Below are positions 24,035-32,232 of a stretch of 64,000 nt of DNA, piece by piece (positions within the stretch are counted from its first letter, which is position 1; every line of letters begins with the position of its first letter). The notes below the pieces were generated by a model. That model ran no database searches. It saw only the letters and a program-made list of their open reading frames with translations, and was not told the origin of the DNA. The DNA comes from Promethearchaeota archaeon (lineage in GTDB: Archaea > Asgardarchaeota > Lokiarchaeia > Sigyniarchaeales > SOKP01). The translations under genes were made by a program, and so were the position numbers. Where the stretch lies: NCBI GenBank assembly GCA_048939995.1, contig JBHLOY010000010.1, positions 1 to 64,000 on the forward strand, read 5' to 3'.

Positions 24035-24581
24035 AATTCTTCACATCTATAAGAATTATTTTTTTATTAGATGACAGTGACTATTATTTCACATTATTTA
24101 AAAGCTATTAACATTTATATATTTACTCAGTATGGTATAGATACCTGAAAACAAGCCTCAAAGGACGGTGTCTTTTTAGAGCAGACAAATCCTTGCATCT
24201 GCTTTGTTCTCGCATCAGTGACATCATAATTTATTGATCAAAATCTTAAACAAGTAAAAACAAAAAAAAAAAACCTTATTTAACCCAGAAATCTTTTGCT
24301 AATCCCCTTCTAGTTTGCCATAATTCATCCTTTCGATTAAAAACGATAACACCCCCCCCTTGATCAGCATCTTCTATTTTCCAAAATCCACTAACAGCTC
24401 CAGTTAAGCCAGCTGATAGAACTTCAAAGCCTTGCGAAGTATACAAATCGCATTCTACCCCTCGATTAATTATAAATTTTCAATTTTGAAAAAGTAAATA
24501 TATATAATAAAAAAATTAGATTTATTTTTTAAGATAGATATGTGAAAAAACGAATAATTTTCTTTTTAGAATTGAGATTCT

Positions 24582-25505
24582 ATGTCAATTGACCGTGAAA
24601 AAATTGAAATTCTATTGAATGAATACTTGAAGGCAGTTGGGGAAGGTCTTATTGCTGCAGTTATAGTTGATAAAGAAGGTCTTGTATTGGCTTCAGAATC
24701 TAGAGGAATAAATATTAATGAGGAAATTGTAGGGGGCGTGTCATCTTTAATCGAACCTGTATTGAAAAGATTAACAAAAGAGTTTAGTTCATTGGATTTC
24801 GGAACAGGAACCTTTGATACCGAAAAATTTCGATTAATATTTTCTCAAGTTGGGGAAATAGCTATTTTAGTTTCCATATTGGGGCCTCGCATAATGATAG
24901 ATCCTGTTTTACCTTATGCTTATTTAACTTCTGAAAAAATAGCAAGAATATTTGGTGCGCGTGAAGTCAGCCCAGTAATACCAAATCTTTATAAAGAACG
25001 GAGGCCGAAAAGTTTCGAACAAAGTGAAGAAATTTCTATAGAATTACCAGATAAGAATATAAAACTACAAGATAGTTTAGAACAGATGGAGGTGGAAAAA
25101 CTAAATAATATTGAACCCCAAGAAATTAAAAATATATCTACATCATCATCTAAAGTTGAAATGAAAATCAAAGAAGAAAAAGCGTTAATAAAAAGAATAA
25201 ATGACGATTCCTCTATGATTAAATCCAAAACACCACCCATCGAGCCTGTAGAGAAAGGAAAAAAGACTAATGTTTTCTTTATATCTACAATTGGACCTGG
25301 TGAGAAGAAACAAAATTTACTTATTGATAATAATAACATCGTTAGTGACATTAAAGAAACTATTGGAAAATTATTTGGACTAGAACCTGCAAATTTTCAT
25401 TTATCTTCAGGTGGTATTACATTGGATGAAAGCTTCCCCTTAAAGGATTATAATATTAATGATGGAGATGAAATTCTTTTAATCCCCTCAAGCACAGCGG
25501 GCTAA
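24582..25505 (+). CDS. Roadblock/LC7 domain fused to C-terminal ubiquitin-like domain
   Basis: AAVIVDKEGLVLAS roadblock motif; VSDIKETI...GGITLDESFPLKDYNINDGDEILLIPSSTAG beta-grasp. Confidence 0.8.
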   Translation: MSIDREKIEILLNEYLKAVGEGLIAAVIVDKEGLVLASESRGININEEIVGGVSSLIEPVLKRLTKEFSSLDFGTGTFDTEKFRLIFSQVGEIAILVSILGPRIMIDPVLPYAYLTSEKIARIFGAREVSPVIPNLYKERRPKSFEQSEEISIELPDKNIKLQDSLEQMEVEKLNNIEPQEIKNISTSSSKVEMKIKEEKALIKRINDDSSMIKSKTPPIEPVEKGKKTNVFFISTIGPGEKKQNLLIDNNNIVSDIKETIGKLFGLEPANFHLSSGGITLDESFPLKDYNINDGDEILLIPSSTAG

Positions 25506-26223: not shown

Positions 26224-29200
26224 TTGATTAAAAAAGCAGATAAATTTAGGACAATATTAATTCTTCTTTGTTTTTCCATGCTTATGCTTTTTCCAATGAT
26301 AATTAACAATACTAACTTTAATAAAGTTTATATGGAAGAGGGCAATTCAATAATTCATAAAAGAGAACTAGTTCGTTCTTCAGCAACGACTGTAGACTTT
26401 AAGTATTATAAAACAATTACTATCGATCATAATCAAGTTTCGGGTGGCAGTAATCTAATCAATTTTACACTCTTAATTTCCATAATCGATTCAGATTTGT
26501 ATCTCAATGCTCAACCCGACGGGGATGATATTGCATTTTTTAAGGATTCTATTCAACTAGCCCATGAAATAGAGTTATTTGACCCTAACTATGGTGGTAA
26601 CCAAGCACGTTTAGTTGCCTGGGTACTTCTGCCTTCTTTATCTCCATCTACAGATACCATCATTTATATGTACTATGGGAATCCAACGATGAGTGCACAA
26701 GAGAACCCAACAGCAGTATGGGGATCCAATTATAAAGGAGTATGGCATTTAAATACAACTTTATTAGATTCAACTGCTAATAATAACGATGGAACAAATT
26801 CAGTACCTGGACCTGATGATGTTTCCGCCTTCATTGCTAGGGGTAGAGATTATTTGAATGTAGACCATTCAAATATGGGATCAGGAAGTAGTATTGATAA
26901 TATATTTAACGGGGGAGCCACCATATCTGCTTGGATTTATCCAGAAGGATGGGGTGGAAATGATTATGGTCGAGTCTTAGATAAATCTACTACTACATCA
27001 GGTACAAATGGATGGGTTATATGTCTTGATGGATACGATACAGTATGGTATAATCAATTACTATTTTATCGCGATTTTAGTACCAATAGAGGCCTTTGGA
27101 TGAGTGGGACAAATACAATTACTCTTAATCAATGGAATCATATTGTTATTACCTATGATGATACTTCAGTATCAAACGATCCGAAGTTCTACATTAATGG
27201 ATTGGATGAAAGTGGACAACCAGGTTGGGAGGATGATACTCCCGTGGGTACAGCTACTAATGATGCAGCGCAATCAATCTATATTGGAAATTTTATGGGA
27301 GGAGGACGGGGTTTTAATGGTGTAATTGATGAAGTTCGCGTATTGTCAGGAATAAAATCTTTAGCTTGGGTTCAAACAGAATACAATAATCAATATGATC
27401 CTGACTCATTTTATACTGTAGGGTCCCCTATTGTCATTGATAACACTCCACCTGATATTACGATAATTTCACCCACTAGTAATTCTCTCTATGGTAGTTT
27501 AGCACCAAGTTTTAATGTCGAAATTAATGATAGTAGCAATATAGATACAAGATGGTATCGTTTACTTAATGGAACAGTAACTACTACAAATACTACTTTT
27601 ACGACAAATGGAACTATTAATCAAGCACGATGGGAAGAATTAGGAAATGGAACAGTAACAATTCAATTCTTTGCTAACGATTCTTTAGGAAATATAGGTT
27701 TTTCAGAAATAGTGGTAAGAAAGGATAATCAATCACCAATGATTTTAATTAATTCTCCGAATAGTTTTGATTTATTTGGTACTACTTCTCCCACTTTTAA
27801 TGTGGAAATTTGGGACATTAATATTGTAGATACTATGTGGTATACCCTAAATAACGGTAAGGAAACAATTTTCACTGCAAATGGCACAATATCACCTTCG
27901 ATTTGGAACACTTGTGGAAATGGCACGGTATCAATAAAATTTTATGCAAATGATTCTTTGAGTAATCAGGGTTATTCTGAAGTCATAGTACGAAAAGAAG
28001 TAGAATCTCCGACGATCCAAATTAATTCTCCAAATGCATATGACCTTTTTGGCAATTTAGCTCCCACTTTTAACGTAGAGATTTCGGATGATAACGGTGT
28101 ATCCTTCATGTGGTATACGTTGAATAACGGTATCGAAGAATATTTTACGGTAAATGGTAGTATCTCCCAATCACTTTGGAGTTCCTGCGGAAATGGCACA
28201 GTCTCAATAAAATTTTATGCTAACAATTCCTTAGGAAATGGAGGTTTTTCAGAAGTCATAGTACGGAAAGATATAATAAATCCAATGATAACCATTAATT
28301 CACCAGATCCTAGTGACTTATATGGAAAAGTTGCCCCTTCTTATAATGTTTTCATCAATGATCCTAATGGGATTGAATCTAAATGGTATACTATCAATGG
28401 GGGAATCACTAATACAACGTTTACAGCAAACACTGGAATAATCAGTCAGACGCGATGGGATGAAATGGGTAATGGTACAATCCTAATTCGCTTCTATGCT
28501 AATGATTCTCTAGGGAATATAGGTTTTTCAGGGGTATTAGTTTATAAAGATATCATTGCTCCCACAGTTGTAATTAATACTCCGAATCCTTACGATCTAT
28601 TTGGAGCAATAGCCCCCAATTTTAATATTGATACAATTGATAGCAGTAGCATAAGTCTTCGATGGTATACACTAGATGACGGAATTACAAATATAACTTG
28701 CGGAACAACGGGACAAATTAATCAAGTTTTGTGGAATTTTCAAGGAAATGGTACAGTTTCAATTAAATTTTATGCAACTGATGTCTTGGGTAATGAAGGC
28801 TTCTCAGAAGTAACTGTACGTAAAGATATCGATCCACCTTCAATAATAATTAATAATCCCACATTAAATCAATCTTTCGACACCACTGCCCCAACTTTTA
28901 ATGTAGAAATCTTAGATATTAATGGCATTGATACCATGTGGTATACTCTTGATAACGGAATAACTAATACAACTTTTACTACGAATAGTTCTATTGATCA
29001 AATCCTTTGGGATAGTTTTGGAGATGGTATCATAACTATTAGATTTTGTGCTAACAATAGTATTGGTACAACTGGATTTTCAGAGGTGTCTGTTATGAAA
29101 GATATCGAAGCTCCGTTAATTGTTATCAATGCACCCTATAACAATACTTACTGGAATCATGCCCCGATAATTAACGTATTTGCATCAGATTTTAATTTTG

Positions 29201-30633
29201 ATGAATTGTGGTTATCCATTAATTCTTATGATGTATTCTTGACTAATAATGTCAATTATCAACTCGATGTCTCTATATGGAACAGCTTGCCACAAGGAAC
29301 CTTTCAAATACGTCTTTATGCAAACGATTCGATTGGACATCTTAATGATTCAGTTCTACTTATGTTATATAAAGATACAATCGCTCCTGATCCTCCAATC
29401 TTAAATACTTTTCCTCAGGGTGAAGTCAATATACCCCTAATTTTTGACTGGGAAGATGATTCTGATCCTTCTGGAATTTCTCATTATCGATTGATAATCG
29501 ATACAGAACAAGATCCTTTTACTACACCGGGATTTGCCTTCGAGGTTAATATCACGTATACTGGTATAGATAGTAGTTATTATGAACTAAGTGAGTATTT
29601 GGCTTCTGGTACGTATTACTTTTTCGTATATCAAATCGACGGGGCAGGTAATCAGGGAGATTATGCAAGTGATACTTTTATCATAAAGCAACAAGTTGTA
29701 GCACCACCAGAGTTCCCATGGTGGATTATCCTTCTCTTAATTGTTCCATTTGGGGTTACAATAGCAGTAATTTCAGTAAGAAAGTCAAAAAAGAAGGTCA
29801 AAGTTGTTGTTGTAGATAAACAACTCGAAGCTCTCAGAGAGCAAAAAAGGCAATTGGAATTGACAGCAAAGGCAGCTATGAAATCAAGAAATTATAAGCA
29901 AGCAGCTCAATATTATGAACAATGTAGAGTTATTTCGAACCAATTATTTGAAGAAGGCTATGAAGAAGAAAAAGATAAGTACAGAAGTTATGAAAAGATC
30001 GAAAATCAATTAAAAAAGAAAATCGCAGCGATTCCGCTGGCATACAAATGTATAAATGCCCTATTAACTAGCCATTTCAGAGAGAGAGGAGTGAAATATT
30101 ATTCGGATCCTGATATCTATCCAGAAACCCAAAAGGCTATCAATGGGTTAATATTAAATGATTCCAAATTTTTCCAAGAACGTTTAACAAACGCGGTTAA
30201 TGGTCCTGAATTAATTAATGAACTTAAAATTAATTCTGATATGATAGATTCCATTAATGCTATTCAATTTTTCTTTACTAATGATTTATCTGAAGATGAA
30301 CTTATTAAGGTGTGCAAAGCATTCCAAAATCCTCAAATGTTTCTTCTTATTGTAGGATTTCCATGGCCAATTCTCGAATATGATGAAATAATGTCAATTC
30401 CTATGGATAACAGTATTCAATATAAGGATAATATAAGAATTATTAATATTCACTTGCTTGCTCGACTGATCGGTATGGAAGGTCAAATCAAAGATGCTCT
30501 TATGGAAATTATCGATCTTGATTTCAATTTTGAAGAATTACAGAAGATTAATACAGAAGTTAAAATAGAATTACACAATACTGAGGAATTGAAACAAGAT
30601 CTTAAACAAAAAGAATGGTTTTTCTTAATTTAA
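26224..30633 (+). CDS. Large single-pass surface protein: DUF2341 + LamG + about 8 Ig-like repeats + TM + cytoplasmic domain
   Basis: DGDDIAF...IYMYYGNP (DUF2341); WNHIVITYD...FNGVIDEVR (LamG); repeats KDxxxPxIxINSP...FYANDSLGN; TM WWIILLLIVPFGVTIAVISV. Confidence 0.88.
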   Translation: MIKKADKFRTILILLCFSMLMLFPMIINNTNFNKVYMEEGNSIIHKRELVRSSATTVDFKYYKTITIDHNQVSGGSNLINFTLLISIIDSDLYLNAQPDGDDIAFFKDSIQLAHEIELFDPNYGGNQARLVAWVLLPSLSPSTDTIIYMYYGNPTMSAQENPTAVWGSNYKGVWHLNTTLLDSTANNNDGTNSVPGPDDVSAFIARGRDYLNVDHSNMGSGSSIDNIFNGGATISAWIYPEGWGGNDYGRVLDKSTTTSGTNGWVICLDGYDTVWYNQLLFYRDFSTNRGLWMSGTNTITLNQWNHIVITYDDTSVSNDPKFYINGLDESGQPGWEDDTPVGTATNDAAQSIYIGNFMGGGRGFNGVIDEVRVLSGIKSLAWVQTEYNNQYDPDSFYTVGSPIVIDNTPPDITIISPTSNSLYGSLAPSFNVEINDSSNIDTRWYRLLNGTVTTTNTTFTTNGTINQARWEELGNGTVTIQFFANDSLGNIGFSEIVVRKDNQSPMILINSPNSFDLFGTTSPTFNVEIWDINIVDTMWYTLNNGKETIFTANGTISPSIWNTCGNGTVSIKFYANDSLSNQGYSEVIVRKEVESPTIQINSPNAYDLFGNLAPTFNVEISDDNGVSFMWYTLNNGIEEYFTVNGSISQSLWSSCGNGTVSIKFYANNSLGNGGFSEVIVRKDIINPMITINSPDPSDLYGKVAPSYNVFINDPNGIESKWYTINGGITNTTFTANTGIISQTRWDEMGNGTILIRFYANDSLGNIGFSGVLVYKDIIAPTVVINTPNPYDLFGAIAPNFNIDTIDSSSISLRWYTLDDGITNITCGTTGQINQVLWNFQGNGTVSIKFYATDVLGNEGFSEVTVRKDIDPPSIIINNPTLNQSFDTTAPTFNVEILDINGIDTMWYTLDNGITNTTFTTNSSIDQILWDSFGDGIITIRFCANNSIGTTGFSEVSVMKDIEAPLIVINAPYNNTYWNHAPIINVFASDFNFDELWLSINSYDVFLTNNVNYQLDVSIWNSLPQGTFQIRLYANDSIGHLNDSVLLMLYKDTIAPDPPILNTFPQGEVNIPLIFDWEDDSDPSGISHYRLIIDTEQDPFTTPGFAFEVNITYTGIDSSYYELSEYLASGTYYFFVYQIDGAGNQGDYASDTFIIKQQVVAPPEFPWWIILLLIVPFGVTIAVISVRKSKKKVKVVVVDKQLEALREQKRQLELTAKAAMKSRNYKQAAQYYEQCRVISNQLFEEGYEEEKDKYRSYEKIENQLKKKIAAIPLAYKCINALLTSHFRERGVKYYSDPDIYPETQKAINGLILNDSKFFQERLTNAVNGPELINELKINSDMIDSINAIQFFFTNDLSEDELIKVCKAFQNPQMFLLIVGFPWPILEYDEIMSIPMDNSIQYKDNIRIINIHLLARLIGMEGQIKDALMEIIDLDFNFEELQKINTEVKIELHNTEELKQDLKQKEWFFLI

Positions 30634-30651
30634 ATTATTTTTTTCTCTTTT

Positions 30652-32232
30652 TTATTTTAATTTCAAATCAATAATTTGAACATTATTTCTTATTGAATCC
30701 AACATTACTTCAAGCTGGTTATATATTTCTGAACGATAATCATCTCCAATCCTGAAAAATAGTATAGAACCCATTTTTGTCTGCAAATCCTCACTTATGT
30801 TAAATTGATGTATTAATTTAGACCAATCATAATTTTCAGTGACCAATAATCCAATTACCATAACTTTACCTTTCTCTAATAGTTCAGCTAATTTAATTAT
30901 GATATAGTTCCATTTTGGATCAATAGTATCCCTATTTCTTGCATCGAAAATTAAAAATACTCCATCTGAACCCTGAGCGTCTTTCAAAAAATAAAAACAG
31001 CTCTTTAAAATAAGGCCATTAGAATATTCAAAATACTTTTCATCCCCTTCATCAGAAAATTTTTCGAGTTCTTGATTTTTATTGATCTCCACTAGTAATT
31101 GTAAAGCAGGATTCCATATTGGATTATTTGTAATAAAAGTTAATATTAGTTTTCTATTTAAATTTAAAACAGAGTCAATAATGTTCAAGATTTTATTTCT
31201 TCGATTGATTTCTTCAATTTCTTTGCATTTTACAATATAATTGTATGATATTAAACGAAATGCATCTTCAATATGTTCACCAGTCAAAGCACTCGTCTCG
31301 ATATATGAAATATTGGACATATATACCTCAGATAATGATTTTGATAAACTTAAACCTTCTTGAGCGCTCACAACTCTTTCATTAGACAAATCACTTTTAT
31401 TCCCAAGAATAATAACTGGAAGATCTTTATTTTCAATGAATTCTGTCAGTTCATTAAACCAATTTCTCACATTTTCAAATGACTTATTGGAAGTTAAATC
31501 AAAAACTATAAAAGCTGCTTGAGCTCCGTTGTAATACGTCTTTCTATATCTTCTAAAATATTCTTGCGCACCTATATCCCAGAGAAAGGCACTTACTTCA
31601 TTACCAAAAGCTTGGAATTTGTGGGAAATAATATTTAAACCGATGGTTGTCCGATAATCTGCCAGAAATCTTCCTTCAACAAATCTTCTAACAATTGATG
31701 TTTTTCCAACTTCATGATTACCAATAATAATAAACTTAAATTTATAAATTCCGTCAGAATCAATTTGAAGGCGATATAATTGGTTTTTCATTCTCCTTGC
31801 TTGTTCAGCGTCGTACTCAAAATTTGGGATAGTCAATTGAAGAGTATCACCTTCAATGGCTGCAATAATTTGTGATATCTTTTCGGCCAGAAAATAACTA
31901 TAAGGGGATATTTTTTCAACTGATGCTGTGCTTTCTAAAACTAAGCTTATCATTATATTCTCATCAATTGAAATAAAGATTAAATGATGATTATCAGTTT
32001 CAAATGAACAAGATCCAAATCTCTTAAAGTCAAATTCGAAACGAATTCTGTCAAGGACTGGATTAACAATTGAAGTTAAAACTGATACTATTTCCATATC
32101 AATGTCCTTCCTTTTCTCCCCTGCTATAATCAGTCCATCTTGATCTGATACTATTACGGCTTCCACTTGTTCATTTCTTTCCAAAAAATTATTTAATAGT
32201 TCAGTAAAAAGTGTTTTTTTGTTTATGGACAA
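30652..32232 (-). CDS. Roadblock domain + Rab-like small GTPase + C-terminal degenerate GTPase-like domain
   Basis: AVIVSDQDGLII; GNHEVGKTS, TTIG, WDIGAQ, GNKSD, ETSAL. Confidence 0.9.
   Translation of the reverse strand: MSINKKTLFTELLNNFLERNEQVEAVIVSDQDGLIIAGEKRKDIDMEIVSVLTSIVNPVLDRIRFEFDFKRFGSCSFETDNHHLIFISIDENIMISLVLESTASVEKISPYSYFLAEKISQIIAAIEGDTLQLTIPNFEYDAEQARRMKNQLYRLQIDSDGIYKFKFIIIGNHEVGKTSIVRRFVEGRFLADYRTTIGLNIISHKFQAFGNEVSAFLWDIGAQEYFRRYRKTYYNGAQAAFIVFDLTSNKSFENVRNWFNELTEFIENKDLPVIILGNKSDLSNERVVSAQEGLSLSKSLSEVYMSNISYIETSALTGEHIEDAFRLISYNYIVKCKEIEEINRRNKILNIIDSVLNLNRKLILTFITNNPIWNPALQLLVEINKNQELEKFSDEGDEKYFEYSNGLILKSCFYFLKDAQGSDGVFLIFDARNRDTIDPKWNYIIIKLAELLEKGKVMVIGLLVTENYDWSKLIHQFNISEDLQTKMGSILFFRIGDDYRSEIYNQLEVMLDSIRNNVQIIDLKLK

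Follow-up and report, generated by a model that had tools for sequence, protein, structure and literature searches.

A Roadblock domain fused to an Ala-Gly ubiquitin-like domain in Loki-type archaea, a candidate conjugatable cargo modifier

Ubiquitin-like conjugation and Roadblock/small-GTPase signalling represent two pillars of eukaryotic membrane organisation that are separate in Asgard archaea. We wondered what a single protein that holds a part of each might do. Such a protein is encoded in the window analysed here, by which we mean the whole stretch of 64,000 nucleotides at the start of contig JBHLOY010000010.1 of a Promethearchaeota archaeon. It carries a Roadblock domain at its N-terminus and a ubiquitin-like (Ubl) domain ending in Gly at its C-terminus. 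If the Roadblock domain were ligated to targets, conjugation and GTPase signalling would be in direct physical contact. The following features were delimited:

24466..24581, + strand: A/T-rich region 5' of the fusion that moves with the gene, delimited by DNA similarity to the copies in other genomes
24582..25505, + strand: Roadblock-linker-Ubl gene, one open frame of 307 aa ending in IPSSTAG and the stop
24582..24992, + strand: Roadblock domain (aa 1-127) with an SPVIP tail to aa 137, based on fold match, identity to the parent and retained residues
24993..25253, + strand: charged linker of variable length (aa 138-224), with indels among homologues
25038..25106, + strand: remnant of the coiled-coil end of the zinc-ribbon/coiled-coil-Ubl family (about aa 153-175), based on a profile match
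25221..25235, + strand: KSKTP motif (aa 214-218), common to the standalone modifiers
25254..25502, + strand: ubiquitin-fold domain of the Asgard Ala-Gly family (aa 225-307), based on Pfam ubiquitin, model and fold searches
25485..25505, + strand: PSSTAG tail and stop, with Gly307 in register with ubiquitin Gly76

The architecture is real. A first-pass annotation had read the gene as an N-terminal Roadblock, a charged linker and about 80 aa of beta-grasp ending in STAG-stop, and reading frame, profiles and models all agree with it. Misassembly and contamination were rejected, as two other assemblies carry this gene between the same neighbours and the flanking genes are about 67-78% identical to those of genomes that share the gene itself at 89-93%. 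Full-length homologues comprise 19 sequences in 7 clusters, and the relatives are labelled by source as Promethearchaeota/Lokiarchaeota or Hodarchaeota, which makes the host an Asgard archaeon, most likely of Loki type.

The Pfam profile Robl_LC7 (PF03259) matches residues 22-97 with E 8e-4 and 19.5 bits, below its curated cut-off of 23 bits. Structure modelling was clearer. The model of aa 1-137 (pLDDT 79) aligned over 117 residues with the Asgard Roadblock 9JUE (Z 16.7, rmsd 2.2) and matched MglB with Z 15.9; its secondary structure (H5-19, E, E, H47-68, E, E, E, H110-123) follows the alpha-beta-beta-alpha-beta-beta-beta-alpha order of the Roadblock/LC7 fold. With the N-termini of a single subfamily of 335-aa Roadblock-Rab GTPases the domain shares 65-70% identity, and with that of the Roadblock-GTPase on contig C19 of the same genome 54%; the SPVIP tail is conserved among the Roadblock-Rab GTPases. 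The usual dimer surface of Roadblocks is made up of helix 2 and strand 3. In the fusion these elements retain 18 of 19 residues conserved in the parent, whereas 7 of 14 are gone from helix 1 and strand 4, the loss in strand 4 lying at its end. By these residue counts the dimer surface is conserved and other surfaces are changed.

Asgard Roadblock dimers have been described (PMC10933270). We predicted the complex of the fusion Roadblock with the parental C19 Roadblock, using our own alignments. The pair scored 0.47 while the best control scored 0.00; the mark applied to such predictions is reached by 58/80 solved pairs and 2/110 mismatched pairs, and scores of 0.60 or less comprise just 7 solved pairs plus both mismatches. 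Runs agreed in at least 93% of contacts, with a partner pLDDT of at least 76. The predicted pairing weakly supports a contact between the two Roadblocks, and since Roadblock dimers have already been solved the score may stem from likeness to them. The Roadblock-GTPase closest to the fusion's Roadblock is found in genus g2 (G023-G027; L075, L076), a genus in which the Ala-Gly cluster described below and its E1 are absent (0/5 genomes, two of these 100% complete).

The C-terminal domain is a ubiquitin fold. Pfam ubiquitin matches residues 241-300 with E 4e-7, above the curated cut-off, and the model of aa 225-307 (pLDDT 88.6) is a beta-grasp. The first-pass annotation had suggested a structure search with the last 80 or so residues; in Foldseek the best match was Caldiarchaeum ubiquitin (E 5.6e-8, TM 0.84), and the model also matched many ubiquitin folds at Z 12-14, the UBL domains of Dsk2 and Rad23 among them. 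Without a gap in the alignment, Gly307 falls on the position of ubiquitin Gly76. The protein ends in Ala-Gly in place of Gly-Gly, with one Ser-Gly among the 7 fusions, and it keeps all 26 positions conserved in the family (P0001).

More than 100 standalone relatives of this domain exist. Most of them are 110-140 aa long; their N-terminal arm is acidic, and they contain a KTP motif and end in P-[AS]-S-[TVI]-A-G. The family is present in 194 of 400 Asgard genomes. Conservation of the terminal Gly was the other check that had been proposed at the outset. A word-based search, which leans towards close family members, returned it in 175/175 close members (7/7 Roadblock fusions, 107/107 standalone proteins and 61/61 other fusions). 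About half of these stop at the Gly, and the others bear short unrelated tails of 1-19 aa, one of which, on a Roadblock fusion, resembles the loss of a stop codon. Gly followed by a stop or by a variable tail is the pattern that a processed modifier would leave. An exhaustive profile search also returned precursors in which two or three complete units follow one another head to tail, with Ala-Gly at every junction, as would be expected of a precursor cut by a protease. The poly-Ubl genes P0304, P0305 and P0357 repeat the acidic arm in each unit and have Ala-Gly at the junction, like polyubiquitin precursors.

Gly was lost in a membrane-anchored paralogue, in the zinc-ribbon fusion P0435 and in the Roadblock-zinc-ribbon fusion P0440, controls that amount to about three lineages. 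These relatives keep 14-16 of the 26 conserved positions and also lack the T[IV]GP loop, which is present in all 25 Gly-keeping representatives including equally divergent ones. The membrane-anchored paralogue of this genome (L001:10597-11394, G000 C23) has a basic tail without Gly and is conserved in the cluster elsewhere.

The genome encodes E1, E2, JAMM and RING genes for the Ala-Gly family. It has two standalone Ubl copies, both on contig C23. One of them, a paralogue 61-63% identical to the Ubl of the fusion, lies directly upstream of genes for a ThiF E1, an E2, a JAB (JAMM) protease and a membrane protein whose end is RING-like, in line with the annotators' statement that Asgard archaea encode E1/E2/E3 homologues. 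The 410-aa E1 has ThiF as its sole profile match; its best matches are UBA2/UBA1/UBA3 at 1e-36 to 1e-31 with UBA5 at 2e-15, and the UBA2-type catalytic Cys is aligned. The E2 is closest to Ubc15/Cdc34. Genes of cofactor synthesis flank the cluster. At its own locus the fusion gene is unlinked to any E1 or E2 gene. Related genomes carry a second E1 paralogue of 527-540 aa, and contig C28 of this genome encodes a separate 84-aa Ubl ending in Gly-Gly-Leu (L083:1486-1740, G000).

The ending I-P-x4-G is suggestive of UFM1 and raises the matter of family identity. Among 59 members, Pfam ubiquitin matched 59 and ThiS weakly matched 4, and the Ufm1 (PF03671, E<=0.1), ATG8 and APG12 profiles matched none. 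A PF03671 match was likewise absent from 5 genomes, this one included, and the best 50 fold matches listed were all other ubiquitin folds, with UFM1 not among them. Identity with UFM1 was rejected on this lack of profile support and on an E1 and E2 of UBA2/1/3 and Ubc15/Cdc34 type rather than UBA5/UFC1. Identity with ATG8 or ATG12 was rejected too, as no member matches the profiles and the 410-aa E1 matches ThiF, with no ATG7-type E1. The earlier comparison with UFM1, ATG8 and ATG12 holds for the single terminal Gly, but family, domain and E1/E2 are of ubiquitin/SUMO/NEDD8 type.

How widespread is the fusion, and is it maintained? It occurs in 3/161 species genomes of the class, in two genera, and all three also carry the family's E1. 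The copy in G066 is cut by an assembly gap, and the 517-aa frame there is spurious, caused by an N-gap within the Ubl. A metagenome scan added one further intact copy; in an ESM Atlas feature search no score exceeded 0.81. Both domains are under purifying selection (dN/dS 0.09-0.16 for the Roadblock part, 0.18-0.26 for the Ubl), and the range of 0.09-0.26 holds across the deep split to the divergent copy P0008 (dS about 0.9-1.2). This copy still bears a 7-aa tail. It alone fills the place of the whole enzyme cluster between a nucleotidyltransferase and a GTP cyclohydrolase gene, and this locus without the cluster is the main caveat to conjugation. TFIIB-like, TPR, ParB-like and Cys-repeat genes adjoin the P0008 locus (L003:2555-6760) and by eye suggest an integrated mobile element.

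Copies of the fusion in different genomes are 89-93% identical in DNA with dS 0.15-0.34, whereas dS is 0.8-3.2 for nine other genes compared between these genomes, and identity in the flanks is about 67-78%. Similarity is limited to the gene and about 115 nt upstream, beginning at about 24466 and ending about 8 nt past the stop codon, and the neighbours differ between lineages. The low dS, the confined similarity and the differing neighbours therefore point to recent transfer of a single gene between genera. Around the fusion we found no convincing terminal repeats as ends of a mobile element. The A/T-rich 24466..24581 is probably the gene's own promoter. Just upstream, about 210 bp of the window (24276-24486) share 90-95% identity with unrelated loci in G139, G072 and G083; they hold a short minus-strand frame, maybe shifted at a C8 run, and probably represent a further small gene of recent transfer, or what is left of one.

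Downstream in the window (26224-32232), the gene of a 1469-aa single-pass protein (DUF2341, LamG, repeats) converges on that of a 526-aa Roadblock-Rab GTPase (30652-32232) which has an extra C-terminal domain and is unlinked to the fusion in other lineages. A receptor-GTPase-Ubl module of the membrane protein, this GTPase and the fusion was rejected, as the Roadblock of this GTPase is just 34% identical and distant in the tree and as the neighbours differ in every other lineage.

In all bootstrap trees the seven Roadblocks of the fusions form one group, with mixed support (96/57). The Ubl tree rests on few columns; in it, a 95/99 branch separates all standalone members from all cargo fusions. 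The position of ubiquitin residue 72 is Ser in fused Ubls (65/68) and Ala in standalone ones (97/107). As the fused Ubls form a separate sub-lineage with Ser at this position, E1 recognition may differ. The linker (16 K/R and 19 D/E in 87 aa, 57-100 aa long across homologues, dN/dS 0.29-0.49) contains a remnant that scored 15.9 bits against the zinc-ribbon/coiled-coil family profile built without the Ubl, a score reached by 0 of 1000 shuffles (best 10.5). P0440 combines Roadblock, zinc ribbon and Ubl in a single chain. Judged from these alignments and trees, the simplest history would be that the Roadblock of a Roadblock-Rab GTPase joined a zinc-ribbon/coiled-coil-Ubl gene whose zinc ribbon was then lost. 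In narrow Asgard lineages, shuffling of eukaryote-like domains is known in general (bioRxiv 10.1101/2020.10.19.343400). The P0440 gene (L088:8001-9074), alike in two assemblies, ends in PAQI-stop without Gly, and shows that a Roadblock-zinc-ribbon-Ubl protein can persist without it.

Ahead of the Ubl, K[TSI]P occurs within 35 aa in 7/7 Roadblock fusions and 97/99 standalone members, and the lysine of KSKTP is a candidate acceptor site. KSKTP as a genome-wide substrate consensus was not upheld, as its enrichment of about twofold over shuffles comes in part from the Ubls themselves and serves as a lead only. A coiled-coil gene beside the second Ubl copy, Ubl-B (L001:11994-13076, G000 C23), ends in the KSKTP motif like the Ubl arms; its product is possibly a substrate or shares the modification site.

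Taken together, we think that the fusion is probably a cargo-Ubl open to conjugation, through which a dimerising Roadblock would be tethered to targets. The ligation to targets put forward in the first-pass annotation gained a conserved Gly, the Gly76 register and cognate E1, E2, JAMM and RING genes in the genome; conjugation itself we infer. The gene would have been born from the Roadblock half of a Roadblock-GTPase gene and the 3' part of a zinc-ribbon/coiled-coil-Ubl gene. Afterwards it would have spread among Loki-type genera as a lone gene, upstream region included. The family E1 would activate Gly307, and the E2, alone or together with the membrane RING protein, would ligate the whole 307-aa protein to lysines of targets. 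The JAMM protease would reverse the ligation and trim the read-through tails seen in relatives. What the tethered Roadblock might do is more tentative still. It could dimerise with itself, two tags per dimer acting as a cross-linker, or pair with the Roadblock of a related Roadblock-Rab GTPase and recruit this GTPase to modified proteins, or displace the GTPase's normal partner by such pairing.

The Ubl might also work without any covalent bond. As an adaptor or decoy it would dock on E1, E2, JAMM or a Ubl reader, its tail being retained for this binding, and either bridge Roadblock-GTPases to the machinery or inhibit the machinery. A distinct fused sub-lineage with its own surface residues would fit such a role, as would the Gly-less Roadblock-containing relative and the location of P0008 where the enzyme cluster is missing. 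We nevertheless consider it rather unlikely, because Ala-Gly is retained over many cargos and under read-through tails while the non-conjugatable membrane paralogue lost its Gly, and because the E1 would be expected to activate an exposed Gly of suitable length that enters its site. Recruitment of the proteasome or Cdc48 by the Ubl, the other role considered in the first-pass annotation, found little support. Here the Ubl would be a built-in degradation or unfolding tag for the Roadblock's partners, like an integral UBL domain, and both the fold matches to Dsk2 and Rad23 and a Cdc48-N-like domain in one family fusion speak for it. Yet the equivalents of Ile44, Lys48 and Lys63 are Ser275, Ile279 and Asp294, Ser275 being almost invariant across the family. 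Shuttle UBLs lie at the N-terminus and do without a terminal Gly, yet here this Gly is conserved. With Ser275 for Ile44 and its conserved Gly the domain stands apart from those of Rad23 and Dsk2, and we regard a degradation tag as improbable.

It is more doubtful again that gene shuffling left a nearly neutral chimera with each half just tolerated. Rarity (3/161 species genomes), neighbours that are not conserved and assembly from two older genes would all be expected of such a chimera, but dN/dS is low in both domains, the P0008 split included, and the gene spread between genera with its upstream region intact. Least credible, and very improbable in our view, is a sulfur-carrier domain of MoaD/ThiS/SAMP type that is activated as a thiocarboxylate. 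The terminal Gly, the weak ThiS matches and the cofactor-synthesis genes around the C23 cluster might hint at one, but in sequence and fold the domain is closest to ubiquitin, and the family's E1 gene is followed by those of an E2, a JAB protease and a RING-like protein, which sets it apart from the ThiS type.

Roadblock is one of several cargos on the same tag. The commonest cargo family is a zinc-ribbon/coiled-coil protein. Ala-Gly is also kept on Cdc48N-VWA, on a HerA-type ATPase known from one sequence and on a proline-rich helical protein whose gene neighbours actin. Cargo fusions other than the Roadblock one are located beside or near the enzyme cluster; P0309, P0325 and P0427, apparent chimeric gene calls, were left out of the cargo list. 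The proline-rich protein (P0302, L082:8001-9434, ENA ERZ23499107) is 477 aa long. It contains a polyproline segment, a coiled coil and an amphipathic helix that on inspection by eye resembles WH2, and it ends in an Ala-Gly Ubl. Its gene is oriented divergently from an actin gene, and its Ubl is sister to that of six Roadblock fusions (90/86). P0289 (L069:8001-9698), P0288 and P0336 join a Cdc48-N-like domain, VWA and the Ala-Gly Ubl, adjoining the Ubl-E1-E2-JAMM cluster. P0317 and P0324 are single-sequence Ala-Gly cargos, a HerA/DUF87 ATPase and a 140-aa domain with a faint Folliculin match (E 0.097).

Beyond tethering by a single protein, we tentatively raise the possibility of a Loki-type modular Ala-Gly branch for 'domain ligation', in which one Ubl sub-lineage bears interchangeable cargos, of which the Roadblock version would covalently install a docking platform for small GTPases. 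Its cargo set could then comprise, equally tentatively, Roadblock, the zinc-ribbon/coiled coil, Cdc48N-VWA, the HerA ATPase and the proline-rich actin-adjacent protein. If true, this would be a direct link between ubiquitin-like conjugation and signalling by Rab-like GTPases. The fusion is confined to few genomes of a narrow lineage and therefore represents Asgard tinkering rather than an ancestral eukaryotic feature. We found no description of a Roadblock-Ubl fusion in the open-access literature; the Roadblock cargo and the modular cargo-Ubl sub-lineage are new here.

Several known systems offer points of comparison. Asgard Ufm1 homologues have been reported (PMC12962969). The fusion shares with UFM1, ATG8 and ATG12 a single terminal Gly instead of di-Gly, and differs from them in the 59 members without a family profile match and in an E1 far closer to UBA2/1/3 than to UBA5. 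Its Roadblock has the same fold as the Asgard Roadblock-Rab GTPases and Roadblock dimers (PMC10933270; PDB 9JUE, 7F8M, 7YH1), MglB and LAMTOR2/3, and shares 54-70% identity with the N-terminal domains of one conserved family of Roadblock-GTPases. Unlike in those GTPases, a Ubl takes the place of the GTPase domain, and helix 1 and the end of strand 4 are without parent-conserved residues. The ubiquitin system of Caldiarchaeum subterraneum consists of CsUb, E1, E2, RING and CsRpn11 (PMC6043591). Common to both are the ubiquitin fold, a precursor tail after the reactive Gly and an E1-E2-JAMM-RING gene set. In contrast to Caldiarchaeum, the fusion has Ala-Gly for Gly-Gly, a 137-aa Roadblock ahead of the Ubl and a gene away from the enzyme cluster. 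In bacteria, Type II BilA Ubls have extra N-terminal domains and a short tail that is removed by a JAB protease, and CBASS Cap2 conjugates cGAS as a whole protein with E1/E2 activity (bioRxiv 10.1101/2023.09.26.559546). The proposed working of the fusion, a Ubl carrying N-terminal domains, would resemble both by analogy. Unlike BilA and Cap2, it was seen in no defence context, its cargo is a GTPase-associated signalling domain, and the archaeal E1 and E2 are nearest to eukaryotic UBA2/UBA1/UBA3 and Cdc34-type enzymes. If our reading is true, a ubiquitin-type tag would deliver folded effector domains in these archaea, as Cap2 does for cGAS in bacteria.
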